From contig JACPWU010000013.1 of assembly GCA_016196885.1 (NCBI GenBank), forward strand, positions 1 through 27,389: a DNA stretch of 27,389 bases, read 5' to 3'. This document shows positions 4,504-26,987 of the stretch, in pieces (position 1 is the stretch's first letter; each line of letters opens with the position of its first letter). A program made the translations under genes and the position numbers. The stretch comes from Chlamydiota bacterium (GTDB lineage Bacteria > Auribacterota > JACPWU01). The notes beneath the pieces were generated by a model. That model did no database searches and had not been told where the DNA came from. It was given only the letters and a program-made list of their open reading frames with translations.

Positions 4504-4538
4504 TGGTGATTGGTGACTGGTAATGGGTTATTGTTTTT
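4504..4538. repeat. Degenerate tandem heptamers TGGTGAT-TGGTGAC-TGGTAAT-GGGTTAT-TGTTTTT filling the entire spacer between the two GH57 genes
   Basis: Read directly. The 7-nt phase continues into the first codons of the downstream gene (ATTCATT-TGTCATT). Confidence 0.6.
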
Positions 4539-4539
4539 A

Positions 4540-7721: not shown

Positions 7722-7761
7722 TTTAAACACCCTTTATTTCAAATTCAAAACCTCACAGTTG

Positions 7762-9222
7762 TCATTTTTTTAAGGCCCTGTTGTAAACTTCTTCGTAACG
7801 CCTTGCGGATTTTTCCCATGACAAATCGTCTTTCATTCCATTTTTAATGATTTCTTTGAAGAGGCTGGAGTTCCGGTAAATCTCCAGAGCCTCTTTGGTT
7901 TTTGCGAGAAGGGCTTCAGCGGAGTAATCTTTGAATTTAAAGCCATTTCCCTGGAGTGTCTTAGGATCAAAATTTTCAATTGAATCGTCGAGTCCTCCCG
8001 TTGCTCTCACAATGGGTACGGTGCCATACTTAAGACTGTAGATTTGATTGAGACCGCAGGGCTCGAAGCGGGATGGCATCATAAGAAAATCACATCCGGC
8101 CTCAATTTTATGTGAGAGCGGGATGTCGAAATCCAGTTTCAAGCCTACCTGCTGGGGGTATTTTGCCTGAAGTTCTTGGAAGAATCTGTGATATTTTTCT
8201 TCTCCTCTTCCCAAGAGGATAAACCCTGCATTTTCGGCAAGGATGGGGGCGATCGCCTCGCTTAAAATGTCCAATCCCTTTTGGTCTGTCAGACGAGAAA
8301 TCATTCCGATCAAGGGACGTCCGGGATCGAGATTTAGTTTGAACTCCTGAATCAGATTTTTTTTGCACTCTATTTTACCCCGAAGATCGTTCACGGAATA
8401 CCGGTTTGAGATAAAGGTGTCTTTCAATGGGTTCCATTCTTCCTCATCTACCCCATTCATGATTCCGTAAAGGTCTTTGGATCTTTTCACGAGGACGCCT
8501 TCTAATCCACAGCCGTATTCAGGGGTCTGAATCTCAAGACTATATTTTTGGCTGACAGTGGTAAGGATGTCGGAATACACAAGCCCGCTCTTCAGCAAAT
8601 TCATCTTTCCGTAGAATTCGATCCCTTCCGGGGTGAACACCTCCCACGGTAAATTGGTCATGTGCATATCGTAATGCCAAAAGAGTCCTTGAAAGGCAAG
8701 ATTATGGATGGTAAAAACCGTGCGGGTTTTTGAAAAGAAGGGATTATTGATTTCAATATTTTTAAGCAAAGCGCTGACCAGTCCTGTTTGCCAATCGTGC
8801 AGATGCAAAATATCGGCTTTTAATTCTAATTCCTCGAGGGTCGAGAGAATGGCCTTTGAGAAAAAAATGAATCGTTCAGCGTTGTCTCTAAAGTCTCCCT
8901 GAGGGGTCTGATACAGATCGTCGCGATCGTAGTATTCGTCTTTAACAACAAAAAGAACCTCCAGATTTTCTGCAAGTTTCGTTGTCGCGATGTCTCCTTC
9001 GATCACCCGGTCTCCCAATTGCACAAAAACCTTTTTTGAGAATTTTTTAATGTCAAGATTTGCCTTTTTAGTTTGCCTGTAAAAAGGTGTGATGATTTTG
9101 ACATCATGTCCTACCCTAGCAAGGGCCTTAGGAAGAGCACTCAAGACATCTGCAAGCCCTCCTGTCTTTGAAAAGGGAGCTATCTCGCTTGAGGCAAAAA
9201 CAATCTTTAGTTTTTTAGCCAT
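7762..9222 (-). CDS. glgA: Glycogen/starch synthase (ADP-glucose type), 486 aa
   Basis: N-terminus KIVFASSEIAPFSKTGGLADV (KTGGL motif). I start at the ATG at 9222 (MAKKLK), preceded by AAAGGAGA. The longer track ORF (to 9315) reads through a repeat array. Confidence 0.9.
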   Translation of the reverse strand: MAKKLKIVFASSEIAPFSKTGGLADVLSALPKALARVGHDVKIITPFYRQTKKANLDIKKFSKKVFVQLGDRVIEGDIATTKLAENLEVLFVVKDEYYDRDDLYQTPQGDFRDNAERFIFFSKAILSTLEELELKADILHLHDWQTGLVSALLKNIEINNPFFSKTRTVFTIHNLAFQGLFWHYDMHMTNLPWEVFTPEGIEFYGKMNLLKSGLVYSDILTTVSQKYSLEIQTPEYGCGLEGVLVKRSKDLYGIMNGVDEEEWNPLKDTFISNRYSVNDLRGKIECKKNLIQEFKLNLDPGRPLIGMISRLTDQKGLDILSEAIAPILAENAGFILLGRGEEKYHRFFQELQAKYPQQVGLKLDFDIPLSHKIEAGCDFLMMPSRFEPCGLNQIYSLKYGTVPIVRATGGLDDSIENFDPKTLQGNGFKFKDYSAEALLAKTKEALEIYRNSSLFKEIIKNGMKDDLSWEKSARRYEEVYNRALKK

Positions 9223-9243
9223 GAATTCTCCTTTTAAAGCGGT

Positions 9244-9320
9244 ACATCGAACATCGTACCTCGCACTTCGAACATCGAACATCGTACTTCGAACGATGTA
9301 CGATGTCCGAAGCACGATGT
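9244..9320. repeat. Eleven tandem heptanucleotide units in the glgC-glgA spacer
   Basis: In a strict 7-nt register: ACATCGA ACATCGT ACCTCGC ACTTCGA ACATCGA ACATCGT ACTTCGA ACGATGT ACGATGT CCGAAGC ACGATGT. ACGATGT is the reverse complement of ACATCGT, so the array is direct plus inverted and can form hairpins. It contains C(UUCG)G-type loops on the mRNA strand. Confidence 0.9.
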
Positions 9321-9326
9321 ACTGTT

Positions 9327-10568
9327 TTATGACTCTTCCATCCGTTCAAATTTTGTCTTCTTAGGGACAATCACAATTCCTTTTTCAGTAACCACAAAAC
9401 GCTTTCGGTCTTTTTCTAAATCAAATCCTATCCTTGATTTTGGCGGAATGTCCACGTCCTTGTCAATGATAGTTCTTCGAACTTGGGCGTATCGGCCAAT
9501 GTTAACCCCGTCAAAGAGAATAGATTCTTCAACTGAAGAAAAACTGTTGATGCGAACCCCCGGAGATAAAACAGAGTGATCCACCTTTCCACCGCTCACG
9601 ATGCAGCCTTCTGTGATGAGGGAGTCGGTTGCATATCCTACCCGTTGTTCTTCGATATTTGCAAAGACAAATTTTGCCGGTGGTAAATGGGAAGAAACCG
9701 TTCTGATAGGCCACTGTTGATTGTACAGGTTGAGTTGGGGAGATACATTGACCAAATCCATGTTCGCCTCCCAATAGGCATCTAAGGTTCCGACGTCTCT
9801 CCAATAGCCTTTTTCCTTTTCTTCAATTCCCGGGACATTGTTAGATGAAAAATCATATGCAAAAACTTTTAATGATTTGAGTGCATCGGGGATCACATTT
9901 TTCCCAAAATCATGATCGCTTTCTTTTTTGGCATCTCTTTTAAGTGCTTGAATCAAGATGTCTCGATTAAAAATGTAATTCCCCATGGAGACAAGCGCAA
10001 AATCGGATCTGTCGGGCAGGGGCTTCGGAGATTTTGGTTTTTCTTGAAAACCAATCACACGCAGGCTTGAGTCAACCGCGATAACGCCAAAGTTAGAGGC
10101 TTCCGTCGTGGGATAAGGAACCGCTGCGATCGTAATATCCGCACCCTTTTCCAAATGCTGTTTTTCCATTTGCCGAACATCCATTTTATAAATGTGATCT
10201 CCGCCAAAAATGAAAACGAGGTCTGGATTTTCATCTTCGATGATGTTGATATTTTGATAAATTGCATCCGCCGTTCCCTTAAACCAAGTCTCCCCTGTTC
10301 TCATTTGCGCTGGAACGCAATCAATATAATGTCCCACGGTGGGAGAAAGATGCCAGCCTGTGGTGATGTGTTTATTCAAAGATTCAGACATGAATTGGGT
10401 TAAAATTTTAATGTTAAAATAACCAGAATTGACAAAGTTACTTAAGGCAAAGTCAATGATTCGGTAATGCCCTCCAAAAGGAACCGCCGGCTTTGCCCTG
10501 TCCCGGGTCAAGGGATAGAGCCTGCGTCCCTCACCCCCCGCTAAAATCATGACCAAGCTTTTATACAT
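9327..10568 (-). CDS. glgC: Glucose-1-phosphate adenylyltransferase, 413 aa
   Basis: ILAGGEGRRLYPLTRDRAKPAVPFGG N-terminal signature, plus a C-terminal left-handed beta-helix-like region. I chose the ATG at 10568 (MYKSLVMILAGG); the upstream part of the track ORF looks non-coding. Confidence 0.9.
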   Translation of the reverse strand: MYKSLVMILAGGEGRRLYPLTRDRAKPAVPFGGHYRIIDFALSNFVNSGYFNIKILTQFMSESLNKHITTGWHLSPTVGHYIDCVPAQMRTGETWFKGTADAIYQNINIIEDENPDLVFIFGGDHIYKMDVRQMEKQHLEKGADITIAAVPYPTTEASNFGVIAVDSSLRVIGFQEKPKSPKPLPDRSDFALVSMGNYIFNRDILIQALKRDAKKESDHDFGKNVIPDALKSLKVFAYDFSSNNVPGIEEKEKGYWRDVGTLDAYWEANMDLVNVSPQLNLYNQQWPIRTVSSHLPPAKFVFANIEEQRVGYATDSLITEGCIVSGGKVDHSVLSPGVRINSFSSVEESILFDGVNIGRYAQVRRTIIDKDVDIPPKSRIGFDLEKDRKRFVVTEKGIVIVPKKTKFERMEES

Positions 10569-10657
10569 TTGAAGAATCCTATAAGAAACCAACTCCCCCC
10601 AACCCCTCTTTCCCACGGGGACTATAACCTCTTGAAATAAGAGGGGAGTCGGAGGGG

Positions 10658-12067
10658 TTATGATACCGATCCGTTTGTAGATGAATTATAAGCGCTGTCT
10701 TGAAACTCTTCAAATGAATTTCTGATTTTTTCAATGATCTGAAAATCTGAGGCCTCGATCATGAGGACTCTCCCTTGATGTTGGGCCAGGAAAATAGTCA
10801 CGTCTTGCGCCTGCCAAAATTGAAATGAGTCCGGGTTGATTTTTGAGACAGCTCCTGGGAATTTCTTAAGGACAAGTTCGCTGTAAGCCATGAGAAATTG
10901 TTTTGCGTCATTCGATGTATCCCAAGAACTGATCCAAACAAGGACAAGCGTGTGATTATTTTTTTCTTCCCACAATTGATAGGTATCCCCTCCCCATCCC
11001 GACGAGGCTTGGGAATAGGACTTTTGTTTCATCCATTTTCTAAAAAGAAGTTCGATATTGAATTCTCCCAAAATATTTTCCTCAATTAAGAAATAGGAGG
11101 AGGAAAAGGAATCTGGAAAGTGTGGGAAGACCATTTTTTGAGGAGGATCGTCGTCGGCCAAATATTTTTCAGGATGCAGTATTTCCTCTGAGGAAGAAGG
11201 GGGTTTTTGAAAACACGCATTGATACCGTTCCATCCTTTTCTTTGATAGATGTAATGGATAAAGTTCATGCCATGGATGTAAGGGAAAAGCATGTTTTCT
11301 TGAAGTACCATGGGGGCTTTTTTAAATTCTTTTTGATCCACAAAAAAGTAGGACAAGAGATCCCAAAAGACGGAGATGTTAATAGAATTCATGTAATACA
11401 ATTGTGTTACAAAGGTTGCATCTCCCTCGATCAGGGCCTGATGCGCCAATTCTTGATCGTCGTTTTTTGAAGAGGGATCCATCAAGTTGTTGATTCTGAA
11501 ATGTTGATCTTGCAAGGTATGAGTGAGTTCATGCGCCAACAAGGTGTTTTGAAGACCCTTGGCAAGCGGCAGCCCTTGAATGGTGAAAAGTGCCTTTTCA
11601 TCCACATCGTAATAGGCTCCAATTTGCTCCCCATAAAGAGAGACCATCTGTTGATCTAGATGATAGTCGGGAGTTAAAAAGCCAAATTTGATTAAAACTT
11701 TTTCGGTTTTTGCAAGGCCATCTGGAAATTCCTTTTTCATTTCTTCAAGGAGTTTGGAATGTAATTCTCTGCGGTTCACTTCTCGATAGACCGGTTCCTT
11801 AAGAAACGGGAGTTCTCTGAGGCGGGAGACCTTCAGTTCAATTTCTGAACGAAGGGCCTCATATTTTATACTTAAAAGGTTTGAGGAGAGAGAGGCATTT
11901 TCTTCTTCAAGCGTCTTTATTTTTTCTTCCAGGAACTCTCTTTGATGATGGAGGGAATAGGTTTTGAAAAGGATCAAGATGTTAGAAAGAGCAAGGAAGA
12001 GTGCAATGACGAAAGACAAATGTTTCGTGCTAAGAGACATGCGACCTTTTAATTTTTTCAAAACCAC
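10658..12067 (-). CDS. Membrane-anchored putative zinc metallopeptidase (MA-clan / gluzincin-like), up to 469 aa
   Basis: N-terminal TM helix, then a coiled coil, then HELTH (HExxH), and about 25 residues later EGDATF (candidate third-ligand Glu, as in the Peptidase_MA_2-type HExxH...EGxA pattern). The start is either the GTG at 12067 or the ATG at 12040. Confidence 0.6.
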   Translation of the reverse strand: MVLKKLKGRMSLSTKHLSFVIALFLALSNILILFKTYSLHHQREFLEEKIKTLEEENASLSSNLLSIKYEALRSEIELKVSRLRELPFLKEPVYREVNRRELHSKLLEEMKKEFPDGLAKTEKVLIKFGFLTPDYHLDQQMVSLYGEQIGAYYDVDEKALFTIQGLPLAKGLQNTLLAHELTHTLQDQHFRINNLMDPSSKNDDQELAHQALIEGDATFVTQLYYMNSINISVFWDLLSYFFVDQKEFKKAPMVLQENMLFPYIHGMNFIHYIYQRKGWNGINACFQKPPSSSEEILHPEKYLADDDPPQKMVFPHFPDSFSSSYFLIEENILGEFNIELLFRKWMKQKSYSQASSGWGGDTYQLWEEKNNHTLVLVWISSWDTSNDAKQFLMAYSELVLKKFPGAVSKINPDSFQFWQAQDVTIFLAQHQGRVLMIEASDFQIIEKIRNSFEEFQDSAYNSSTNGSVS

Positions 12068-14269: not shown

Positions 14270-14483
14270 AATGACAAATGACCAACATCAATTTCAATGA
14301 CCCTTTTGGGGGGTCATCGTGTGCGATGAAAGTTCTCCCAATCATGCTTTTTTTGTAGTCGCCCGATTCATCGGGCAGCCCCATAAATGGGGCGACTACA
14401 AATTAATCCTCAATTCTCCAATGATCCATTAGACATTCGTAATGGGTTATTCATTTAACATTGGAAATGAGTCATTTGTCATT
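14270..14483. repeat. 13-bp inverted repeats, AATGACAAATGAC (14270-14282) and GTCATTTGTCATT (14471-14483), bracketing the whole convergent rnr/PMM spacer
   Basis: Read directly. The left arm starts 5 nt after the rnr stop. The right arm abuts the PMM stop codon. Confidence 0.6.
14355..14399. repeat. REP/BIME-like doublet: two inverted GTAG-headed palindromic units
   Basis: GTAGTCGCCCGATTCATCGGGC (14355-14376) and, inverted, GCCCCATAAATGGGGCGACTAC (14378-14399). Each unit is a GTAGTC head plus a GC-rich hairpin. The same units recur at 21535-21621. Confidence 0.8.
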
Positions 14484-15814
14484 TATGAGTTTTGAATGAT
14501 GCTCAACAATTCTTCCGACTTTTCTTTAAGCATCTGAGGCGTTTTTGCCTCCACATTTAATCTTAAAAGAGGTTCTGTATTTGATTTTCGGAGATTGAAC
14601 CACCAGTCTTTGAATTCAATGGATAAACCATCCAGATAAAAAGTTTTTCCGTCCTGAAATTTTTTCTCAATGTGCTGAATAATTTGATCAGGATCTTTCA
14701 CTTTTGAGTTCAGCTCGCCTGTTGCGTGGTACCTTTTTAAGGGATGTATCAATTTTGAGAGTGGAACGCCCGCCTGAGAAAGCACATTCAACATCATCAC
14801 AAATGCAATCGCCGCGCTGTCACAAAAAGAATTATCCCTAAAGTAATAATGTCCTGAAAGCTCTCCTGCAAAAACACCATTCGCCTCTCTCAAGGCCTGC
14901 TTGATGAAGGCATGTCCCACCCGACACATTTGGGCCTTGCCGCCATTTTTCTCAACTTCTTCCCGAACCGTCCAGCTCGATCTCAGGTCATAAAGAATCG
15001 TCCCTCCTGGACGCTGGCGTAAAAATTCTTTCGCAATCAGGGTTGTAATAATATCCGCTGAGACAATTTGGCCTTCGTTATCCACAAACATCACACGATC
15101 CGCATCACCGTCAAAGGCTACTCCCAAATCCGCCTCATGCTCAATCACCGTCTTCATCAGGTCATGCATGTTATGCGACTCTAAAGGATTGGCGTCATGA
15201 TGAGGGAAAGTGCCGTCCAGTTCAAAATAAAGAGGGATCACTTCGCCGGGCAAAAACTCAAAAAGTTTTGGGGCAATCAGGCCACCCATGCCATTGCCCG
15301 CATCGATCACTATTTTGAACCTTTTAATTTTTTTAGAAAATTTTAGAACATGTTGAATGTAATCATCTAAAACATTTTTCGTTTCAATTTTTCCTTTTTT
15401 CCCTGTGTGCTTAGGGACATCAAAATTACGAACTTTATCTTCAATTTCGGCAATGCCGGTTTCATAGCTGATAGGGTAAGCACCCCGCTGACACATTTTA
15501 ACGCCGTTGTATTCTTTAGAATTGTGACTGGCCGTGACCATCACCCCGCCATCATAATCATAATGGGCTGTTGTGAAATTAATCATGGGTGTAGAAATGA
15601 GTCCGACGTCCACAATATTGAGTCCTCCATCGGTCAGACCTTCCGCCACTTGTTTAAAAAGAGAGGGCGAGGAAGTTCTCATGTCCCGCCCCACAGCGAC
15701 CGTTCCTTTTCCGATCACTTGCGAAATTGCATAGCCAATTTTATAGACAATCTCTTCGTTGATTTCTTGAGGGTAAATCCCCCGAATGTCGTAAGCCTTA
15801 AAAATGCCTGCCAT
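14483..15814 (-). CDS. Phosphomannomutase / phosphoglucomutase (alpha-D-phosphohexomutase family), 443 aa
   Basis: Phosphoserine loop TASHNSKEYNGVK, metal-binding loop FDGDADRVMF, and sugar-binding GELSGHYYF. AGGAGAG RBS. Confidence 0.85.
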   Translation of the reverse strand: MAGIFKAYDIRGIYPQEINEEIVYKIGYAISQVIGKGTVAVGRDMRTSSPSLFKQVAEGLTDGGLNIVDVGLISTPMINFTTAHYDYDGGVMVTASHNSKEYNGVKMCQRGAYPISYETGIAEIEDKVRNFDVPKHTGKKGKIETKNVLDDYIQHVLKFSKKIKRFKIVIDAGNGMGGLIAPKLFEFLPGEVIPLYFELDGTFPHHDANPLESHNMHDLMKTVIEHEADLGVAFDGDADRVMFVDNEGQIVSADIITTLIAKEFLRQRPGGTILYDLRSSWTVREEVEKNGGKAQMCRVGHAFIKQALREANGVFAGELSGHYYFRDNSFCDSAAIAFVMMLNVLSQAGVPLSKLIHPLKRYHATGELNSKVKDPDQIIQHIEKKFQDGKTFYLDGLSIEFKDWWFNLRKSNTEPLLRLNVEAKTPQMLKEKSEELLSIIQNS

Positions 15815-15902: not shown

Positions 15903-17234
15903 CTATCTTTTCTCCAATATCATCTTCATCCCATATTTCGGTCGAAGGGTGATGCCGGGTTGGAGGCCGATAGGGTGTCCGGGGGCAAGGCGCATTTTCC
16001 ACTTTTGAGCGAGGGTTGCCATGAGTAAAATTTCCTCCATCCAGGCAAAGTGCTCCCCGATGCAAACTCTTCCCCCTGCCCCGAAAGGAAAATAGGCGAA
16101 TTTAGGTCTTTGAGCTTGGGCCTCCGGTGTCCATCGCATGGGATCAAAACGCCAGGAATCAGGATAATATTTTTCGCTGTGGTGTATGACAAATGGGCTC
16201 ATGGCAACAATGGAGCCTCGCGGAACTCTGTATCCTCCGAGTTCGCATTCGTCAATGGCTCTTCTTCCAATGGCCCAGGCGGGAGGATAAAGGCGCATGG
16301 ATTCTGAAAAAACCATATAGAGATATTTCAATTTTTCCATGTCTTCATAAGTGGGAAGTCTATCGCCAAGCACCTCCTTTAATTCTTGGTGGAGTTTGGC
16401 TTCTGCCTGCGGATTTTGGGAGAGAAGGTACCAAGTCCAAGTGAGGGCATTGGCCGTGGTCTCATGACCTGCCAAGAAAAGGGTCATGGCCTCGTCACGC
16501 ACTTGTTGATCGTTCATGCCCTCCCCATTTTCTTGGGCAGAAAGAAGCAGCGAAAGTAAATCCCAAGAATCATGTCTTTCTTTTCTTCGTTCCTCAATCA
16601 TTTTCTGAATAATTTTATCCAGCGTCTCGCGGGCCTTCAGGGCCTTGTGAATTCCAGGAAGCGGCAGCTTCTCTAATAAGTCAGAGATGGGAAGAAGCAT
16701 CATTCTAAAGGCATTCACCAAGGTGGTCATTGCCTCGCCAACCTCTTTCGCTTCTTGATCCACGTCTCGGTTGAAGAGGGTTTTCCCAACGACCAAGAGA
16801 GTCAGCCTTGCCATTTCCTGAGACATGTCCAGGATCGAAGCATTTCGCCATGCCTCACGTATGCGTACGCCATATTCCACCATGATAGAGGCATAGCGCT
16901 CAATGTTCTGTCTGTGGAGAATAGGTTGAATCAGGCGCCGCTGTTTGAGATGAAGCTCTCCCTCGCTGGTTAGGAGGCCTTCTCCCAACAATTGCTTGGT
17001 CCGTTCCAGCGCTTCACCCTTGATGAAATTTTTCTGATGCGTGACAAGAATATCTTTGATTTGTTCGGGGTGATTTGTAAAAAAAACATGCCGAGGGCCT
17101 GCCTTAAAATGAATGAGGTCTCCGTATTTCGTAACGGACTTCATTAGGAAACTGATGGGATCTCGAAGCAATTTAATCAATCCGCTTCCGGGAAAAAGAA
17201 ATTTGGGACCGGGAGGAAATTTTGGATTGGACAT
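15903..17234 (-). CDS. Cytochrome P450 monooxygenase, 443 aa
   Basis: Heme-binding loop FPFGAGGRVCIGEHFA (FxxGxRxCxG), I-helix LAGHETT, and K-helix ESMR (ExxR). Confidence 0.85.
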   Translation of the reverse strand: MSNPKFPPGPKFLFPGSGLIKLLRDPISFLMKSVTKYGDLIHFKAGPRHVFFTNHPEQIKDILVTHQKNFIKGEALERTKQLLGEGLLTSEGELHLKQRRLIQPILHRQNIERYASIMVEYGVRIREAWRNASILDMSQEMARLTLLVVGKTLFNRDVDQEAKEVGEAMTTLVNAFRMMLLPISDLLEKLPLPGIHKALKARETLDKIIQKMIEERRKERHDSWDLLSLLLSAQENGEGMNDQQVRDEAMTLFLAGHETTANALTWTWYLLSQNPQAEAKLHQELKEVLGDRLPTYEDMEKLKYLYMVFSESMRLYPPAWAIGRRAIDECELGGYRVPRGSIVAMSPFVIHHSEKYYPDSWRFDPMRWTPEAQAQRPKFAYFPFGAGGRVCIGEHFAWMEEILLMATLAQKWKMRLAPGHPIGLQPGITLRPKYGMKMILEKR

Positions 17235-17330: not shown

Positions 17331-19004
<1,674 letters not shown>

Positions 19005-19066: not shown

Positions 19067-19354
19067 TCATTTCACAACTGCTAAAACTTCTTCTTCTCGA
19101 AGAATTAAAAATTCATCGTCGCCGACCTTGACTTCTGTTCCAGAATATTTTCCGATGAGAACCTTGTCCCCTTCCTTCACTTGAAAGGGAATGGCTTTCC
19201 CTTCATCGGACACCTTGCCGTGCCCCAAAGCCACCACCTCAGCCTCCATTGGCTTTTCCTTGGCTGTATCTGGGATAATAATTCCACCCTTCTTGACTTC
19301 CTTCTCTTCAACCCTCCTGACGAGAATTCGATCTGCTAAAGGTTTGACCTTCAT
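19067..19354 (-). CDS. groES: Co-chaperonin GroES (Hsp10), 95 aa
   Basis: [19 protein letters not shown]...[23 protein letters not shown]. The gene starts 20 nt after the dnaK stop. Confidence 0.95.
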
Positions 19355-19374: not shown

Positions 19375-21303
19375 TTATTTTTTCTTTTTCTTATCATCCA
19401 CCACTTCGAAATCCGCATCAATGACATCTTCTTTTTTCTCATCCTTCTTCTCTTCGGCTTGAGAATTTTGCTCGTGAGGTTGTTGCTGGTCATGAGCGGA
19501 GGAAGATGCCTTTTGATACAAATCTGTGGAAATCTCCTGCCAAATTTTCATCAATTCATCGGTCTTTGATTCAAGCTCACCCTTTTCATCAGAGTTTAAG
19601 ATGTCCCTTAGGCTCTTAATCGCATTTTCAAGACGCTCTTTATGTGCATCTGAAATTTTATCCTTTTGTTCTTTGACGAATTTCTCACTTTGATAAATGG
19701 CATTGTCGGCCTTGTTTCTCGCTTCAATCACTTCCCTTTTCTTTTTATCTTCGCCAGAGAATTTCTCTGCATCCTTCACCATGTTCTTGATTTCATTCTC
19801 TGTCAAGCCGGAGTTAGCCTGAATGGTAATTTTTTGTTCCTTCCCTGTCCCCAAATCCTTGGCAGAGACATGAAGAATGCCGTTGGCATCCAGGTCAAAA
19901 GTGACTTCGATCTGAGGAACCCCTCTGGGAGCCGGCGGAACACCGACCAATTGAAATCGGCCGATGGTTTTATTGTCTCTGGCCATTTCACGCTCTCCTT
20001 GAAGCACGTGAATCTCTACACTGGTCTGGCCGTCGGCCGCCGTGCTAAAAATTTCACTTTTCTTCGTGGGGATGGTGGTATTGCGATCAATGAGTTTTGT
20101 CATGACGCCACCCAGTGTCTCAATTCCCAAGGAAAGCGGAGTCACGTCCAAAAGAAGAACATCCGTCACTTCGCCCTTCAGAACACCTGCCTGAATCGCG
20201 GCACCCACTGCTACCACTTCATCTGGATTCACGCCCTTATGGGGTTCTTTCCCAAAAAGCTCTTTCACAATTTCCTGAACTTTGGGCATGCGGGTTTGTC
20301 CGCCGACCAAAATGACCTCATTGATATCTGAGGGTGTCTGCTTCGCGTCTTTCAAGGCCTGCTTCACAGGAGCAATGGTTCTTTGAATGAGGTCATCTAC
20401 CAATTGCTCAAGCTTAGAGCGGCTTAATTTAACGCTCAGATGTTTAGGGCCCGAGGCATCGGCCGTGATAAAAGGTAGATTGATCTCGGATTCCTGAGCA
20501 CTTGAAAGCTCGCATTTCGCCTTCTCGGCTGCTTCTTTGAGTCGCTGCAAGGCCATCGGATCTTTTCTTAAATCAATGCCATTTTCTTTTTTAAATCCAT
20601 CGGCCAGCCAATCCATAATTTTCTGATCAAAGTCATCACCGCCCAAATGAGTATCTCCATTGGTGGATTTTACTTCAAAAACACCTTCACCAATTTCAAG
20701 AATGGAAATATCAAAGGTTCCGCCTCCCAAATCATACACGGCAATTTTCTCGTCCTTCTTTTTATCTAAGCCATAAGCCAAGGAGGCAGCCGTGGGTTCA
20801 TTGATGATGCGAAGTACTTCTAAACCTGCGATGCGTCCTGCATCCTTGGTTGCTTGGCGCTGGCTATGATTGAAGTATGCAGGAACAGTGATCACCGCTT
20901 GGGTGATTTTTTCTCCCAAATAGGCCTCTGCATCGGCTTTTAATTTCTGGAGAATCATAGAAGAAATTTCGGGCGGAGAATAAACCTTGTCCGTAATTTT
21001 GACATGGGCGTCGTTGTTGGTGGCACTCGCCACTTGATAGGGAACCAATTTGATTTCGTTTTGAACCTCGGAGAATTTTCTTCCCATGAAACGCTTGATG
21101 GAAAAAACGGTATTATTGGGATTTGTGACAGCTTGTCTTTTGGCTGTAAGTCCCACGAGGCGTTCTCCCCCTTTAGTGAAACCAACCACGGAAGGCGTTG
21201 TTCTCCCCCCTTCTGAATTTGGAATCACCACCGGCTCTCCACCCTCTAAGATGGCCACGCAAGAATTGGTTGTTCCAAGATCTATCCCAATAACTTTACC
21301 CAT
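19375..21303 (-). CDS. dnaK: Molecular chaperone DnaK (Hsp70), 642 aa
   Basis: [22 protein letters not shown], and an acidic/Lys-rich C-terminal tail. I start at the ATG at 21303. The track ORF begins at a TTG that lies inside the promoter motif. Confidence 0.95.
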
Positions 21304-21367
21304 AACTTTTTCCTTTTTGTTTGGAGAATTTCTTTCACCCGATGCAGAATGACTCAAACGGATAGTA

Positions 21368-21383
21368 AGCAATATATATGCCA
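21368..21383 (-). promoter_or_regulatory. Sigma-54 (RpoN) -24/-12 promoter candidate for dnaK-groES-groEL
   Basis: The minus strand reads TGGCAT-ATATA-TTGCT, against the consensus TGGCAC-N5-TTGCW. GG and GC are at the exact spacing. The site is about 65 nt upstream of the dnaK ATG and correctly oriented. Confidence 0.65.
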
Positions 21384-21476
21384 ATATTTAATTAAATCGT
21401 AATCTCTTGAAGATAAATAGGTTATATCCATAACTTGTTTTAGATTTTTTGCATCGCCATTGAGAAAGAGCCAAAA

Positions 21477-21504
21477 TGTCTCTATTTTATTGAGACACTC
21501 TGTC
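21477..21504. promoter_or_regulatory. Inverted repeat TGTCTC-N9-GAGACA plus an adjacent TGTC; candidate enhancer (UAS) for a bEBP
   Basis: TGTCTC (21477-21482), 9-nt AT spacer, GAGACA (21492-21497), then CTC and TGTC (21501-21504). It lies 93 nt upstream of the -24 element, and the intervening DNA is AT-rich. Confidence 0.4.
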
Positions 21505-21534
21505 CCTGTAGAATCCGTCATGTTCTTTTTTATT

Positions 21535-21621
21535 GTAGCCGCCCGATTGATCGGGCAATCGTAGTCGCCCGATTCATCAGGCAAATCCATGCAAGGACGG
21601 CCCCATAAATGGGGCGACTAC
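21535..21621. repeat. REP/BIME-like cluster: two direct units plus one inverted GTAG-headed palindromic unit
   Basis: GTAGCCGCCCGATTGATCGGGC (21535-21556), GTAGTCGCCCGATTCATCAGGC (21561-21582), and inverted GCCCCATAAATGGGGCGACTAC (21600-21621). The last unit plus the flanking AAATT is identical to 14378-14404. Confidence 0.8.
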
Positions 21622-21725
21622 AAATTCTTCAAAAGCGCTTGCAACGTAAGTAAAAAGCCATTTAAAAGTCTTTACATTCCCTAAATTAGGCTTAAAACAG
21701 GTATTAGGATCACTATTTTAGGCCT

Positions 21726-22532
21726 ATGAAATATCAAAGACTGCTAAAAAAAGAGATTTCTGAAAGATTTTTTTCGGGTAAAGCTATCATTGTTACCGGA
21801 GCCCGGCAGAAAGGGAAAACCACCCTTGTCCAGGAAATCATCTAAGAAGTTGGCGTAGAAAAGTGTAGAGTTTTTAACTGCGACAACCCATCAGAGCGCT
21901 CTCTTTTGACCGATAGAGATCTCGAATTTCTCCTTCAAGTGATTGGAGATAGCAAACTTATTTTAAGGAACTCCATGAAAGTTATCTCTACAAAGACATT
22001 TTAGAATTCCAGAAAATTAGAAACTCCGAGACAGTTTTTAAACTTGTAAAGGCGCTCTCGCTCCAAATAGGTTCCGAGGTTTCTTATACTGAATTATCAA
22101 GTTTGATTGGCATAGATAAAAGATCCATCGAGCATTCTATTGATCTCCTAGAAAAATGCCATGTTGTTTTTCATCTTGCTCCTTATGCGAAGAACAAGCG
22201 AAAGGAAATCTCAAAACTCAAAAAAATCTACTTCTATGATTTAGGAATTCGAAACGCACCGAAACGACGCCGGTGCATTATGGGAAAACTACGTGATTTT
22301 AGAAAGACTTAAATTTCGAAATTACCATCGCATCGAAGCCGATCCCTATTTCTGGAGAACTTATGATGGCAGTGAAGTTGACCTTGTTAAAGAAAGGGAA
22401 GGAAATCTTTTTGGTTACGAAATAAAATGGTCTGGACGCCCTCGTCTCCATCCTCCCTTAAAATGGCAGGAATACCCCAACAGCTCTTTTCATCTCATTG
22501 ATAAAAACAAACTTGTAGATTTTATTTTGTAG
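21726..22532 (+). pseudogene. Decayed AAA+ ATPase gene (AAA_14 / DUF4143-type)
   Basis: The N-terminal fragment MKYQRLLKKEISERFFSGKAIIVTGARQKGKTTLVQEII (Walker A GxxxGKT) ends at a stop at 21843-21845. Family-like segments then continue in other frames: ...NCDNPSERSLL...VIGDSKLI; ...YLYKDILEFQKIRNSE...GSEVSYTELSSLIGIDKRSIEHSIDLLEKCHVVF...KIYFYDLGIRNA; ...GALWENYVILERLKF...YFWRTYDGSEVDLV. The total span is about 0.8 kb. From memory, intact members of this family are about 1.2 kb. So the gene carries frameshifts, stops and internal deletions. Confidence 0.75.
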
Positions 22533-22561: not shown

Positions 22562-23173
22562 TTAACTTTCGTTAACGCACTTAATTTCCTTCTTCAAACG
22601 AGCGAGGTGATGTGCATTCAAACCTAATTCTGGAATTTCCTGGTATGTATTGAGAAGTGTTCGGAACGTTAAAACCGCTTTGGTAAGCCCGTATGTTTTC
22701 ATCAAATCAGTGGCCTCCCCCAGATGAGAAACCCCAGATTGGAGAAGGGCTAGACAATCAATGAAATCCTTCTCTCCCTTTGAAGTTCGAGCCCGCTCTG
22801 ATAAAGCATATAATTTAAGTGCCAACAAGTAATCAGCATCTAAAAGTGTATACCCTTCGATTTCTCGCTTTTTGTCGTAAAGGATGTGGACAGGAATGCC
22901 GAGTTCGGAAAAATGCGGGAGATAAATATCAATCTGGACGTTTCCCTTCACGGCTTCGTATTTCTTAAGGCGTTCATTTTTAATGAGCTGATAATGCTTC
23001 GCAACGTTGGGAAGTTGATCGAAATTGATGATGATATCAATGTCTTTGGATTTTAACGCCTTCGTGTATAGATAAACGGCCCATCCCCCTATTAAGATAA
23101 AATCTAGTTTTTTCGAAAGCGTTTGCAGTTCTTCCCAACTTTGCTGAGTGACGAGATCATGATAATAGGCCAT
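22562..23173 (-). CDS. Nucleotidyltransferase-fold protein, AbiEii/DUF1814-like candidate toxin, 203 aa
   Basis: IGGWAVYLYTKALKSKDIDII fits the minimal NTase motif hG[GS]-x9-13-Dh[DE]h. A second acidic strand is VQIDIY. KLYALSERARTSKGEKDFIDCLAL resembles the Pol-beta/AbiEii motif III (KLxAxxxR....D..D). AGGAGA RBS. The gene overlaps the upstream gene by 17 nt. Confidence 0.55.
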   Translation of the reverse strand: MAYYHDLVTQQSWEELQTLSKKLDFILIGGWAVYLYTKALKSKDIDIIINFDQLPNVAKHYQLIKNERLKKYEAVKGNVQIDIYLPHFSELGIPVHILYDKKREIEGYTLLDADYLLALKLYALSERARTSKGEKDFIDCLALLQSGVSHLGEATDLMKTYGLTKAVLTFRTLLNTYQEIPELGLNAHHLARLKKEIKCVNES

Positions 23174-23756
23174 TCATTTTCTCCTGTAGCGCTTGAGTAA
23201 AATCCCTGCCGTACCAGTCACTCAGGCTCCAAATATCAACAAAGGTTTGAGCAAGGGTTGTCCAAGAACCGTATTCTCTCATCTCAGGTGCCATTTTAAG
23301 AGCAAATGTGTTTCGAGGCTCCTTCAAAGAAGGAGGAAACCGGCGTTGGAAAGCCGATAAATCACTGGGTGAAACGTAAAAGTAGACGCGACTGTAGTCC
23401 GCTGGGGACTCTCCAAGCCATTGCCTAGCAGCACGGTAGGTCGCGTAAATACTGCCAGGAATAGCCATCCCTTCAATTTCTCTTGTGGACTGATTCAGAG
23501 TTGTAGAATAGAGAATATCTCGGTTGAGAGATCGAATGCTGGCCCAGAAATAGAGGAGTTTCCTAAAATCGTGCAACACGAAAAACTTCCCGGCCTTGCG
23601 GATAGCCCCCATTTGGCTTGGAGCCTCAAGGGCGTGATGAACCGTGCTTAAAGAGTAACGAAATTTTCGGGCCAAATCTTGCTGGGTATGTTGGAATCTC
23701 TCATGTGTCAGAGCTTCGTGTAAAACATAATGCCAAATTGTTTCGATTTTTTTCAT
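23157..23756 (-). CDS. Winged-HTH DNA-binding protein, AbiEi-like candidate antitoxin/regulator, 199 aa
   Basis: HTH-like segment TQQDLARKFRYSLSTVHHALEAPSQMGAI followed by a C-terminal domain of about 120 aa. I start at the ATG at 23756, because a consensus promoter lies inside the longer track ORF. Confidence 0.5.
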   Translation of the reverse strand: MKKIETIWHYVLHEALTHERFQHTQQDLARKFRYSLSTVHHALEAPSQMGAIRKAGKFFVLHDFRKLLYFWASIRSLNRDILYSTTLNQSTREIEGMAIPGSIYATYRAARQWLGESPADYSRVYFYVSPSDLSAFQRRFPPSLKEPRNTFALKMAPEMREYGSWTTLAQTFVDIWSLSDWYGRDFTQALQEKMNGLLS

Positions 23757-23765
23757 TATTTTATG

Positions 23766-23794
23766 ATTATATTTCGATAAAGATCGAAAGTCAA
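23766..23794 (-). promoter_or_regulatory. Near-consensus sigma-70 promoter with an operator-like inverted repeat in the spacer; apparently leaderless transcript
   Basis: The minus strand reads TTGACT (23794-23789), a 17-nt spacer, then TATAAT (23771-23766). The spacer is essentially the inverted repeat TTTCGAT-CTTT-ATCGAAA (23772-23789). Only 9 nt separate the -10 box from the ATG, and there is no Shine-Dalgarno sequence. Confidence 0.65.
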
Positions 23795-23815
23795 TATCTT
23801 TGTTCTTGTGCTGCA

Positions 23816-25159
23816 CTAGAGAGAATATTCTTTAATCTTTCGGTGGAGCGTTCTTCGGCTGATACCCAGAAGATGGGCGGTTTTGGTTTTATTAAAATGG
23901 TTGGCATTGAGGGTTTGTAGGATCAATGTTTTTTCTGCCTCTTTGATGGGAAGTCCAGGGCTTAAAAAATGAGCGGATCCCTTGTTCAGATTTTTTAAAT
24001 GAGGAGGAAGATCCGAGGTCCCAAGTTCTTGCTTTTTCGCCAGCACCACCATGCTCTGAATACAATTTCTCAGTTCTCGAACATTACCAGGCCAGTCGTA
24101 CGCCATCAGGGCTTCTATCACTTTTGGAGAAATGACCGAAACATCTTTGTTATTCTCACGAGCTGCCTCTTTTAAAAAATGTTGAATGAGAAGTGGGAGG
24201 TCCTCTTTTCTTTCCCTGAGAGGAGGCACTTGAATAAAGACCACATGAAGACGGTAATAAAGGTCTTCTCTGAACAAACCCCCTTTTACTTTCTCTTTTA
24301 ATTCTCGGTTGGTGGCAGAAATAACGCGCACATCGGTCTTGAGTGTTTCAAGCCCCCCGACCCTTTCAAATTCTCCCTCTTGAAGCACCCGCAGCATCTT
24401 CACTTGAATGCTGGGACTCACCTCTGAAATTTCATCTAGGAAAAGCGTTCCTCCATCGGCTCTTTCGAATCTTCCGATGTGCCTTTCATGAGCACCCGTG
24501 AAGGCACCCTTCTCATGCCCAAAAAGTTCACTCTCCAAAAGATTTTCAGAAAGGGCCGCGCAATGAACGGCCACAAAGGGCTTATTTTTTCGGGGGCTCA
24601 ATTGATGAATCGCATGGGCGATGAGTTCTTTTCCCGTTCCGCTTTCTCCTTGAATGAGAACCGTCGCCTTGGTGGGAGCCACTTGCTGTACCAGCTCATA
24701 AATTTCCTTCATTTTTGTGCCTTCACCAATAATATTTTCAAAGCCTGACTTTTTATTGAGCTCTTCTTTCAAGAGACGATTTTCATTCTCCATTTTTTTA
24801 ACTTGCAAGGCTCTTGCGAGAATGATTTCAAGCTCGTCTAAATTGACCGGCTTTGAAAGGTAATCATAAGCCCCTTTTCTCATGGCTTGCACGGCGGTTT
24901 CAATGGAACCATAGGCTGTGAACACCACCATCTTAAGATTTTCGTCTTCTTTTTTTGCCTCTTCAATCAATTGAAGTCCCCCCATCCCTTTCATTCTTAG
25001 GTCCGTGAGCATGAGATCCATGGAGTTTTCTTTTAAAATTTTAAGAGCTTCGAGACCTGTCTGGGCAAGAAAGACCTCATACCCCAAGGGACGCAAAGCC
25101 CTTGCCAATCCCTCTCGAGTGTTGATCTCGTCATCCACAATTAAAATTTTAGAGTTCAT
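23816..25159 (-). CDS. Sigma-54-dependent response regulator (NtrC family bEBP: REC + AAA+ + Fis-type HTH), 447 aa
   Basis: REC domain (ILIVDDE...DLMLTDLRMKGMGG), Walker A GESGTGKE, the sigma-54 contact loop GAFTGA, and the C-terminal HTH KTAHLLGISRRTLHRKIKEY. I start at the ATG at 25159, with AGGTGGA upstream. The gene overlaps the kinase gene by 11 nt. Confidence 0.9.
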   Translation of the reverse strand: MNSKILIVDDEINTREGLARALRPLGYEVFLAQTGLEALKILKENSMDLMLTDLRMKGMGGLQLIEEAKKEDENLKMVVFTAYGSIETAVQAMRKGAYDYLSKPVNLDELEIILARALQVKKMENENRLLKEELNKKSGFENIIGEGTKMKEIYELVQQVAPTKATVLIQGESGTGKELIAHAIHQLSPRKNKPFVAVHCAALSENLLESELFGHEKGAFTGAHERHIGRFERADGGTLFLDEISEVSPSIQVKMLRVLQEGEFERVGGLETLKTDVRVISATNRELKEKVKGGLFREDLYYRLHVVFIQVPPLRERKEDLPLLIQHFLKEAARENNKDVSVISPKVIEALMAYDWPGNVRELRNCIQSMVVLAKKQELGTSDLPPHLKNLNKGSAHFLSPGLPIKEAEKTLILQTLNANHFNKTKTAHLLGISRRTLHRKIKEYSL

Positions 25160-26336
25160 TATTTTTTCCACCTTGTTCTGGGAGTAATTTCATTTTCCTT
25201 TTCATTCCCATCGGCAGGAGGATAGAGACGGTTGTTCCTTTTCCAAATCGGCTCGTCACATCAATTTTTCCACCGTGGTCTTTCACAATACGATAAGAGA
25301 TCATGAGCCCCAGGCCAGAGCCGCTTGTTTTTGTTGTAAAGTAGGGCTCAAAAATTTTAGGAAGAATCTCCTTTGGAATTCCCTCTCCATTGTCTTCGAA
25401 TATGATTTTGACCTTTTCATCATCTTGAGTAAGCAAAACTTTAAGAATTCCTCCATGGGGCATGGCCTCTATGGCGTTCTTGATAATGTTAGAAAAGGCC
25501 TGCTTCATTTGGAATTCGTCCACACTCACCTTGGCAATTTTCTCGAGGAAGGATTTTTTTAAAGTAATTTTGTTCAGCACAAGTTCCTCTTTCATAAATC
25601 GCAAAGTCTCTTCAAGAATTTTAGCGATGTCGCTCCCCTGAAGATTGGGTCGAATAGGCCTGGCGGTGACTAAGAAGCTCCGGACCGTATGGTCCAAACG
25701 CCGGATTTCACTTTTGACAATCTTCAGGGACTCCAGCAAATTCTTGGAGGACGAAGTTGGGAGTTTATGCACATCCCTTTCCAAAAGCTGGAGGTGAATA
25801 TCAATCGAATTGAGAGGATTTCCAATTTCATGCGCAATGCAGGAAGCCATGAGGCTCACCGTTTGAAGCTTCTCAGAACGCATTTGATCGAGTTCTTCCT
25901 CTTTTCTTTTGGTCACATCGGTCAAAATCAGGACAAGACCGAGGTAGGCATTTCCAGAACTCACCAAGGGAAAAACATTCAAATGAAGGATGCGTGGAAT
26001 CGGATGAATCATTTGAATGTCCCGGTGAATGAGTTTCCCCCAATCCGTTTTGATCAGGGCTGCCAATTCTTCAAGCTCGAGAGACTCAAGGTAACGGGTG
26101 AGGTCTTGCCCCTCCATCTCTATGTCTTTAGCATCTAAAAACTCCTGGGCGGCATGATTGATAAAAATAATTTTCTGTGCTCTATTGGTTACAACAATGC
26201 CCTCCAGCATGCTGTTGAAAATACTTTCCAAGAGTCCTTTCTCTTGGGCCAATTGAACAAGATAATTTTCGACATGCTTGTGGTCCAGTCGTTCAATACG
26301 CGTGATTAACTTTTCTAAAAAAGTCGTTTTAGCCAT
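25149..26336 (-). CDS. Soluble PAS-domain sensor histidine kinase, 395 aa
   Basis: No TM segment. N-terminal PAS-like region (LEGIVVTNRAQKIIFINHAAQEFL). H-box SCIAHEIGNPLNSI. N-box IIKNAIEAM. G-boxes EDNGEGI and GSGLGL. Confidence 0.9.
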   Translation of the reverse strand: MAKTTFLEKLITRIERLDHKHVENYLVQLAQEKGLLESIFNSMLEGIVVTNRAQKIIFINHAAQEFLDAKDIEMEGQDLTRYLESLELEELAALIKTDWGKLIHRDIQMIHPIPRILHLNVFPLVSSGNAYLGLVLILTDVTKRKEEELDQMRSEKLQTVSLMASCIAHEIGNPLNSIDIHLQLLERDVHKLPTSSSKNLLESLKIVKSEIRRLDHTVRSFLVTARPIRPNLQGSDIAKILEETLRFMKEELVLNKITLKKSFLEKIAKVSVDEFQMKQAFSNIIKNAIEAMPHGGILKVLLTQDDEKVKIIFEDNGEGIPKEILPKIFEPYFTTKTSGSGLGLMISYRIVKDHGGKIDVTSRFGKGTTVSILLPMGMKRKMKLLPEQGGKNNEL

Positions 26337-26862
26337 GGTTGGGATGTTCTTCTTTTTTCTTTTTGATATAGGTGTCTATTGGATTAGACGGTTCAACCTG
26401 AGAAGCGGCAGGTATAGGCTTATCAAGATCTTCTTTTTTGAGACCACAATTCCAGCAAATGACAGAAAAAACCATTTTGCTTGAGCATTTTGGGCATTTC
26501 CAACCTTCCTCAAAGTCTTCATGAATGTAAAAGCGCGGCTGGTAAAATTCATTCATTTTTTTGGAGGAGAAAAGCGACAGACCATAAACCAAATAAAGAA
26601 AGGTGAAAGACAAACTGCTTAAGACTCCAATCAGTTTTGACACTTCCTCGATATTTAAGCTTAAAACGAAACCCGCGATCACTCCAAGTACCCCCAATCC
26701 CATCAAGATCAGGATAGAAACTCTTGCCCATTTTTTCTTCGGGATGAGAAAAAGGTTGAGAAAAGCAAAGGCTGAAAATGCCGGATGCACGAAAACAGTC
26801 AAGAGAACAGTCGAAATTAAATTCATACCCATTAAGATGATATGAATACTTTTAATTTTCAT
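26329..26862 (-). CDS. Four-TM membrane protein with a C-terminal cytoplasmic zinc ribbon (CPKC-x10-CWNC), 177 aa
   Basis: Four hydrophobic helices, then WKCPKCSSKMVFSVICWNCG. Its stop overlaps the kinase start (ATGGCTAA, an 8-nt overlap). Confidence 0.7.
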   Translation of the reverse strand: MKIKSIHIILMGMNLISTVLLTVFVHPAFSAFAFLNLFLIPKKKWARVSILILMGLGVLGVIAGFVLSLNIEEVSKLIGVLSSLSFTFLYLVYGLSLFSSKKMNEFYQPRFYIHEDFEEGWKCPKCSSKMVFSVICWNCGLKKEDLDKPIPAASQVEPSNPIDTYIKKKKEEHPNHG

Positions 26863-26952: not shown

Positions 26953-26987
26953 TAAAAATAGAAAAGTGAGACAAAAAGATACTTCTT

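Follow-up and report, generated by a model that had tools for sequence, protein, structure and literature searches.

Contig JACPWU010000013.1 of the Chlamydiota bacterium assembly GCA_016196885.1 raises the question of how its core chaperone operon, dnaK-groES-groEL, is switched on. The whole stretch of DNA analyzed, 27,389 nucleotides and referred to here as the window, contains a sigma-54-type (-24/-12) promoter in front of dnaK, two palindromes upstream of that promoter, and an operon for a two-component system whose response regulator belongs to the NtrC family of enhancer-binding proteins. Taken together, these elements suggest that the three chaperone genes are probably run from an enhancer-dependent sigma-54 promoter by the adjacent regulator, which would also control its own synthesis. 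The chaperone genes and the elements upstream of them are the following.

19375-21303, minus strand: dnaK, 642 aa (Pfam HSP70, E-value 6e-274).
19067-19354, minus strand: groES (Pfam Cpn10), starting 20 nt past the dnaK stop.
17331-18983, minus strand: groEL (Pfam Cpn60_TCP1).
21304-21725: intergenic region upstream of dnaK.
21383-21368, minus strand: predicted sigma-54 -24/-12 promoter TGGCAT-ATATA-TTGCT (TGGCATATATATTGCT), an exact consensus match in which TGGCA and TGCT are invariant in relatives.
21506-21492, minus strand: candidate upstream activating site 1, palindrome GGGACAgagTGTCTC, centered at about -142.
21482-21468, minus strand: candidate upstream activating site 2, palindrome GAGACAtttTGGCTC, centered at about -118, 24 bp center to center from site 1.
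21412-21424, minus strand: possible integration host factor (IHF)-type bending site TAACCTATTTATC in the AT-rich spacer, weakly indicated.

The dnaK ATG (21303-21301) is preceded by AAAGGA and begins the canonical DnaK N-terminus; a longer open reading frame (ORF) running from a TTG codon through the promoter motif was rejected as an artefact. Because the canonical protein starts at this ATG, the promoter ends 65 nt before the start codon, and transcription is predicted to begin near 21357, leaving a 54-nt leader. The GG and GC doublets of TGGCATATATATTGCT lie exactly 10 bp apart within the TGGCAC-N5-TTGCW pattern. A preliminary description of this locus had given the same sequence, coordinates, and orientation at a distance of about 65 nt, and had called the element the sole full match in the window. 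Scanning both strands for exact TGGCAY-N5-TTGCW matches returned this site only, and no additional site appeared in the window when one mismatch was allowed. The same description considered chance placement unlikely, which stands on grounds other than rarity: 0.08 exact matches are expected per shuffled window and 7 of 100 shuffles held at least one, so that the match taken alone is only modestly improbable. The weight is carried by position and conservation.

Conservation was followed first in close relatives, the contigs L161-L167, which were reached through homologues of the regulator (66-79% identity) and whose DnaK and GroEL are 82-89% and 91-92% identical to those of the window. The sigma-54 element is present upstream of dnaK, in conserved position and orientation, in all six loci that bear dnaK, a check that the preliminary description had proposed.

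L162: promoter TGGCACATATATTGCT.
L163: promoter TGGCATAGAAACTGCT.
L164 and L165: promoter TGGCATAAAACATGCT.
L166: promoter TGGCATGATTATTGCT.
L167: promoter TGGCATGTATATTGCT.

A MAFFT alignment of six dnaK upstream regions has a mean column identity of 58%, within which TGGCA and TGCT are invariant. An ATAA in the AT-rich spacer is also invariant and may mark an IHF-type bend; L163 carries an exact YAA-N4-TTGATW at the candidate IHF position. In L162, L163, L164, and L167 the gene order is membrane protein, PAS kinase, regulator, 200-240 nt of intergenic DNA, and dnaK. This is followed by groES and groEL in the first three, while the L167 contig stops inside dnaK. In L166 an inserted 867-aa ORF (6567-9170), of no recorded family, separates regulator and dnaK, and the promoter and palindromes still lie directly upstream of dnaK. 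As a separate observation, L117, which has the closest DnaK in a metagenome scan (78%), carries a sigma-70-like TTGACA-N17-TATATT upstream and lacks a -24/-12 element, so that not every near relative of the window's DnaK has the sigma-54 arrangement.

A phylum-wide panel was assembled from two collection scans (genome and metagenome) with DnaK, giving 160 loci with best matches 72-78% identical. Of these, 53 share the dnaK-groES-groEL order, the named ones being Verrucomicrobia, Lentisphaerae/Victivallales, Kiritimatiellia, and Akkermansia (here the Planctomycetes-Verrucomicrobia-Chlamydiae, or PVC, loci). Promoters were scored out of 20 against the -24/-12 pattern in the 250 nt preceding dnaK, read on the coding strand. 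Scores of at least 19 were found in 33/53 loci, as against 0/53 on the opposite strand, and scores of at least 18 in 43 as against 3. Elsewhere in these loci there were only 17 comparable matches, several of them inside coding sequence, and none of the 17 had an upstream half-site pair. The element is absent upstream of dnaK in the deltaproteobacterial, Ignavibacteria, Zixibacteria, Nitrospirota, and Omnitrophota loci of the panel, and present in Gemmatimonadota loci, the Poribacteria locus L001, and some others.

These comparisons decide the simplest alternative, that the -24/-12 match and the upstream repeat are both non-functional resemblances. Although 7% of shuffled windows hold an exact match somewhere, the element is kept in six relatives and in 33 PVC loci with no counterpart on the control strand, and the palindromes described below are enriched 49-fold. 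Chance is effectively refuted by the comparative data. The dnaK promoter is very probably functional, judging from its position and conservation, and an intact enhancer-binding protein with a GAFTGA motif would imply that the genome has rpoN.

Six panel loci from Gemmatimonadota and other groups (L025, L035, L045, L066, L067, and L078) have dnaK without groESL and a -24/-12 element about 70-160 nt upstream. Their elements are of the form CGGCAC/GGGCAC...TTGCW and the upstream dyad differs, being CTGCCA-N4-TGGCAG. This points to a second sigma-54 circuit for chaperones, parallel to the present one, in bacteria beyond the PVC group.

If the promoter depends on sigma-54, an enhancer is to be looked for upstream. 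The two candidate sites are 15-bp palindromes of the form GnGACA-N3-TGkCnC that are conserved in relatives when aligned on the promoter. The inverted repeat TGTCTC-N9-GAGACA proposed in the preliminary description is present exactly at 21477-21497, and is better read as the inner half-sites of these two palindromes. The adjacent TGTC noted there likewise exists, as part of the outer half-site GGGACA of the first palindrome and not as a separate element. What was described as one repeat is thus part of a conserved predicted upstream activating sequence. Paired palindromes recur in L162, L163, L164, L166, and L167, spaced 22-24 bp center to center, and in the relatives the centers fall at about -150 and -125, counted from the predicted start.

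L162: site 1 GAGCCAgttTGTCCC; site 2 GAGACGtttTGTCAC.
L163: site 1 GAGACAaaaTAACCC; site 2 GAGACAaatTGTCCC.
L164: site 1 GGGACAaaaTGGCCC; site 2 GCGACAaatTGACTC.
L167: site 1 GATGCAtaaTGTCCC; site 2 GAGACAgttTGTCCC.

Unbiased counting of 6-mers over the 200 nt that precede the PVC promoters gave 49 occurrences of TGTGCC/GTGCCA where 4.1 were expected, with ACTGTG, TGTGAC, and GTGACA likewise enriched. Palindrome density is 3.04/kb in the zone from -220 to -40 and 0.062/kb in the rest of the loci (49-fold), a test that is partly circular in that the pattern was derived from the same regions, while the rest-of-locus control stays valid. Palindrome centers in the PVC panel cluster at -110 to -180. 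The locus of an uncultured Akkermansia sp. (L010) has TGGCACAATCGTTGCT 79 nt upstream of dnaK and TGTCACactGTGACA about 150 nt further upstream. Position (80-200 bp upstream), dyad symmetry, and conservation are all those of an enhancer; the sites are candidates, linked to the regulator through synteny and through a site that they share with the regulator's own promoter.

The operon encoding that regulator comprises three genes preceded by a promoter of its own.

26329-26862, minus strand: first operon gene, a 177-aa multi-pass membrane protein with a C-terminal CxxC...CxxC (ORF).
25149-26336, minus strand: cytoplasmic PAS histidine kinase, 395 aa (Pfam PAS, HisKA, HATPase_c).
23816-25159, minus strand: NtrC-family enhancer-binding response regulator, 447 aa (Pfam PF00072, PF00158, PF25601, PF02954).
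26952-26924, minus strand: sigma-70-like operon promoter TTGACC-N17-TATAAT; TTGAC...TATAAT aligns in seven relatives.
26912-26898, minus strand: palindrome GGGACAtaaAGACTC, a probable autoregulatory operator, within about 12 nt past the -10 element.
26968-26982, minus strand: a second, weaker site GTATCTtttTGTCTC ahead of the -35 element, with a poor left half and of low confidence.

Coordinates and domains of the regulator and the neighboring PAS kinase agree with the preliminary description. The regulator has Asp53 in its receiver (REC) domain, a Walker A motif GESGTGKE at 171, GAFTGA at 218, a Walker B motif LFLDE at 239, and an intact Fis-type HTH_8 domain with GISRRTLHRK at 432, so that its domain content is that of the NtrC family. 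Its top matches among solved structures are the NtrC-family entries 4l4u and 1ny5, and it is 100% identical to a protein listed by NCBI under 'MAG: Chlamydiae bacterium'. The best NCBIfam models are those of the E. coli AtoS/AtoC equivalogs (NF008468/NF008469), at scores below their cut-offs (AtoC, 495 bits against 714 for the regulator; AtoS, 249 against 646 for the kinase); the NtrC model also falls below its cut-off on the regulator. The kinase carries its phospho-accepting His in HEIGNP (residue 169) and is 62-70% identical in relatives. The membrane protein has no Pfam or NCBIfam match, and homologues of 30-37% identity occupy the equivalent position in L162-L167.

All seven relatives have an equivalent of palindrome GGGACAtaaAGACTC at the operon's own promoter, even L161, whose dnaK lies elsewhere.

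L162: own-promoter palindrome GAGACAtaaAGTCGC.
L163: own-promoter palindrome GAGACAtttTGACTC.
L165: own-promoter palindrome GTGACAtaaTGACTC.
L166: own-promoter palindrome GGGACAttaTGGCGC.
L167: own-promoter palindrome GGGACAtttATACTC.
L161: own-promoter palindrome GCGACAaaaAATCAC.

L163 and L165 also carry GATACAaaaTGACTC at the place equivalent to the weaker second site. The palindrome is shared with the regulator's own promoter, and the motif is therefore tied to that regulator. NtrC-type proteins that limit their own synthesis classically do so from a site over the start of their sigma-70 promoter, and the own-promoter palindrome would accordingly be expected to be repressive. On the basis of synteny, the shared own-promoter site, and the intact protein, the palindromes are likely to be bound by the adjacent regulator. 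Covariation between recognition-helix residues and half-sites was considered as further evidence of binding and set aside as uninformative, because GISRRTLHRK is invariant across the family.

Several observations weigh against this assignment. In most PVC loci the 6-7 kb around dnaK contain no gene for an enhancer-binding protein, and adjacency of regulator and dnaK is for this reason clade-specific. In L161, whose regulator is the closest to that of the window (79% identity), dnaK is not beside the two-component operon. The half-site consensus is low in information, fixing about 8 bases in each palindrome. A co-linear pair of kinase (38-41% identical) and regulator (58-59% identical) is encoded in Verrucomicrobia and Kiritimatiellia, with an identical GISRRTLHRK recognition helix. 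Among three such homologues only L168 has a palindrome upstream of the operon, which is suggestive; L170 has two TGTGCC half-sites there and L169 none. To these may be added the partial circularity of the density test.

Such points leave room for a sigma-54 promoter that is real and driven by a different protein, either another enhancer-binding protein or an activator working from solution as proposed for chlamydial CtcC, with the palindromes serving as operators through which an unrelated factor acts on dnaK and the two-component operon alike. A motif of low information that is shared by two promoters does leave the binding protein unspecified, and besides the many PVC dnaK loci with no such protein nearby there is L048, which has a GAF-type enhancer-binding protein next to dnaK instead. 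This alternative is nevertheless unlikely. Four relatives keep the regulator directly beside dnaK, and in the unrelated locus L022 a REC-AAA+-HTH regulator of 51% identity adjoins dnaK. Retention of the motif at the regulator's promoter even in L161 is the classical signature of an autoregulated cognate factor, and positions of -118 and -142 are typical of enhancer sites, not of repressor operators.

The regulator was described earlier as lying 2.5 kb upstream of the promoter on the same strand. This is correct for the window, and the gap is best seen as secondary, because the operon directly abuts dnaK in L162, L163, L164, and L167. The intervening DNA contains the following.

22562-23173, minus strand: AbiEii-like nucleotidyltransferase (Pfam AbiEii), part of a toxin-antitoxin pair outside the circuit.
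23157-23816, minus strand: 219-aa partner of the AbiEii-like gene, with no family match.
21726-22532, plus strand: decayed AAA_14/DUF4143-type ATPase gene, broken into several short ORFs, with the P-loop GARQKGKTT.
21532-21623: three repetitive extragenic palindrome (REP)-like units, GTAGYCGCCC...GGC, at the insertion boundary, containing a sigma-32-like CCCCAT.

An intact 389-aa homologue of the ATPase occurs in L161, while the AbiEii pair and the ATPase gene are absent from the regulator-dnaK junction in the four relatives just named. The REP-like units include GTAGYCGCCCGATTSATCRGGC and GTAGTCGCCCCATTTATGGGGC, and two more copies lie at 14355-14399 between the convergent RNase R and phosphomannomutase genes. 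From this comparison, the toxin-antitoxin pair, ATPase pseudogene, and REP-like repeats are interpreted as an insertion into an ancestral regulator-dnaK junction.

The insertion bears directly on whether dnaK is transcribed mainly by another sigma factor. A CIRCE element (controlling inverted repeat of chaperone expression, TTAGCACTC-N9-GAGTGCTAA) is absent from the whole window with up to 3 mismatches allowed, as the preliminary description had found. That account also saw no convincing correctly oriented sigma-32 promoter. A correctly oriented string does exist, TTGAA-N13-CCCCAT at 21632-21609, with 0.23 expected per window. Its -10 part, CCCCATTTA, sits inside the REP-like unit GTAGTCGCCCCATTTATGGGGC, which recurs at 14355-14399. 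No string of this kind occurs upstream of dnaK in the relatives or, over the 400 nt preceding dnaK, in the collection-scan loci. Borne on a repeat of inserted DNA and unconserved, it is an improbable dnaK promoter, and the earlier statement on sigma-32 is to be qualified accordingly. Chlamydiae have moreover been described as lacking sigma-32 (PMC8762339). Two weak sigma-70-like matches occur upstream of dnaK, one being TCTACA-N17-TAAAAT at 21512-21484, where 1.6 are expected; since their number is no higher than chance and neither is conserved, a sigma-70 promoter was rejected.

It could still be argued that dnaK is expressed mainly from a promoter of the sigma-70/sigma-66 or sigma-32 type, with the sigma-54 element secondary, in tandem, or acting as a closed-complex brake. 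A tandem promoter with a sigma-54 element has been reported for hrcA in Chlamydia trachomatis, and essential chaperones need basal expression that a strictly activator-dependent promoter might not supply. With the available strings either insertion-borne or at chance frequency, and unconserved in both cases, we consider this distinctly improbable. Control by an RNA thermometer in the 5' untranslated region was also rejected, and is unlikely because the fold of the leader is not significant (-6.4 kcal/mol, z = 0.72).

The favored circuit, in which the adjacent regulator activates the sigma-54 promoter, would operate as follows. The cytoplasmic PAS kinase, possibly aided by the co-transcribed membrane protein, would phosphorylate the regulator on Asp53. 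The regulator would then assemble on the two tandem GnGACA-N3-TGkCnC palindromes about 142 and 118 nt upstream of the start. Looping of the AT-rich spacer would allow it to contact sigma-54 holoenzyme held closed at TGGCAT-N5-TTGCT, and the GAFTGA loop, with ATP hydrolysis, would open the promoter. Bound to the palindrome past the -10 element of its own sigma-70-type promoter, the regulator would limit its own synthesis. Promoter, palindromes, their conservation, synteny, and domain content are the parts of this scheme that can be read directly from the aligned loci.

The signal would be proteotoxic or heat stress, a guess made from the target genes. The circuit may instead run as outlined and answer to a developmental cue, or to energy or redox state through the PAS domain, with the chaperones as one output among others. 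The kinase, a soluble PAS protein, shows no evident sensor of unfolded protein, the sigma-54 regulon of C. trachomatis has been linked to late development (PMC7482065), and atoC is a late gene in Waddlia (PMC4989314). In L164 the clpB gene beside the operon has no sigma-54 promoter, a further point that tells against a chaperone-wide role; because of it, a broad heat-shock regulon is not demonstrated. A search of the flanks of the 53 PVC loci for further sigma-54 promoters with upstream sites also found none. On the other side, dnaK-groESL is the only sigma-54 promoter target found in the window and the relatives' loci. With HrcA reportedly missing in Verrucomicrobia and Lentisphaerae, the circuit is also the obvious candidate for heat-shock control in these groups. 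A signal other than stress is thus possible, though we regard it as the less probable option.

The remainder of the window lies outside the proposed circuit.

15903-17234, minus strand: cytochrome P450, between the groEL and phosphomannomutase genes.
14483-15814, minus strand: phosphomannomutase.

In L163 and L164 phosphomannomutase directly follows groEL, and for this reason the P450 gene looks like a lineage-specific insertion. The G+C content around it is 0.49-0.50, compared with about 0.42 elsewhere in the window. A glycogen cluster (2314-10616, minus strand) encodes two GH57 enzymes, a GalT-like protein, GlgA, and GlgC; the C. trachomatis sigma-54 regulon includes glgC (PMC7482065), but no -24/-12 match occurs within the cluster of the window. 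A 469-aa ORF (10658-12067, minus strand) with no Pfam match separates glgC from the RNase R gene. An Rfam search of the window returned no match.

How much of this is new can be judged against systems already described. The preliminary description called such a circuit essentially uncharacterised, which was overstated, as sigma-54 chaperone promoters are known (PMC9723704, PMC12316311, PMC7482065, PMC8762339). In Flavobacterium psychrophilum, -24/-12 promoters supported by mapped start sites precede groESL, dnaK, grpE-dnaJ, htpG, clpB, and lon (PMC9723704). In a 2025 survey of predicted sigma-54 promoters, the GroEL, GroES, DnaK, DnaJ, GrpE, and IbpA COG families stood out as enriched in Planctomycetota and Bacteroidota (PMC12316311). 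Neither study assigns an activator or an enhancer motif to the chaperone promoters, and neither reports such promoters for Verrucomicrobia, Lentisphaerae, Kiritimatiellia, or chlamydia-like lineages. In the searchable literature, no description was found of the cognate two-component system, its DNA motif, or conservation of promoter plus enhancer across Verrucomicrobia, Lentisphaerae, and Kiritimatiellia. What is new here is the probable cognate regulator with its DNA motif, and the spread of the arrangement over several phyla; sigma-54 control of chaperones is itself already known.

The closest parallel by lineage is CtcB/CtcC of C. trachomatis, which belongs to the same superphylum as the window, annotated as a Chlamydiae metagenome-assembled genome. 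Both systems pair a PAS kinase with a REC-AAA+ activator, and CtcC is reported to be closest to E. coli AtoC (PMC7482065). They differ in that CtcC has no DNA-binding domain and no enhancer is known for it, whereas the window's regulator has an HTH_8 domain and conserved palindromes. Chlamydial chaperone operons are controlled mainly by HrcA/CIRCE with sigma-66; the window, by contrast, has no CIRCE and its dnaK is joined to the groESL operon. The hrcA-grpE genes belong to the CtcC/sigma-54 regulon of C. trachomatis and are induced by CtcC (PMC7482065, PMC8762339). De Barsy et al. reported that AtoC is conserved throughout the PVC superphylum, and that Lentisphaerae, Verrucomicrobia, and Planctomycetes lack HrcA (PMC4989314). 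It is plausible, although unproven, that the window encodes a DNA-binding-competent counterpart of chlamydial CtcB/CtcC (AtoS/AtoC).

In mechanism the closest likeness is to the textbook NtrB/NtrC system at glnAp2, where a two-component enhancer-binding protein acts from two tandem dyads about 110-140 nt upstream of a -24/-12 promoter. NtrC also binds over the sigma-70 promoters of its own operon in negative autoregulation, a feature that is predicted for the present regulator. Here the targets are chaperones and not nitrogen assimilation genes, and the site is GnGACA-N3-TGkCnC as opposed to TGCACC-N5-GGTGCA. As reconstructed, the mechanism is that of a standard NtrC-type circuit, and the target is the unusual part. 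In Myxococcus xanthus the NtrC-type two-component system HsfB/HsfA drives lonD from a sigma-54 promoter; its target is the Lon protease instead of Hsp70/Hsp60, and the phylum is another. The HsfBA phosphorelay of Myxococcus is named in PMC9109919. HrcA/CIRCE and sigma-32 act on the same target genes, although the logic here would be ATPase activation and not repression or sigma replacement.

The locus is a candidate answer to the question of how Verrucomicrobia, Lentisphaerae, Kiritimatiellia, and the deep lineages of chlamydiae control their core chaperones. It offers a complete testable circuit, comprising a kinase, an activator, a 15-bp motif, a sigma-54 promoter, and the dnaK-groES-groEL operon. 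The same architecture in the Akkermansia locus makes the hypothesis testable in a culturable, medically relevant organism. It is tempting to speculate, on balance with somewhat more doubt than confidence, that an AtoS/AtoC-type system with sigma-54 was the ancestral master regulator of core chaperones in Verrucomicrobiota, Lentisphaerota, Kiritimatiellota, and deep-branching chlamydiae, in place of sigma-32 or HrcA. CtcB/CtcC would then be its descendant, having lost the DNA-binding domain after HrcA took over, and the sigma-54 promoter at hrcA-grpE-dnaK would be a relic. The locus in this way suggests an original role for chlamydial CtcC, which would explain why hrcA-grpE still responds to it. 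Its value lies in a testable model of chaperone control for an understudied superphylum, and in what it hints about where the sigma-54 system of chlamydiae came from.

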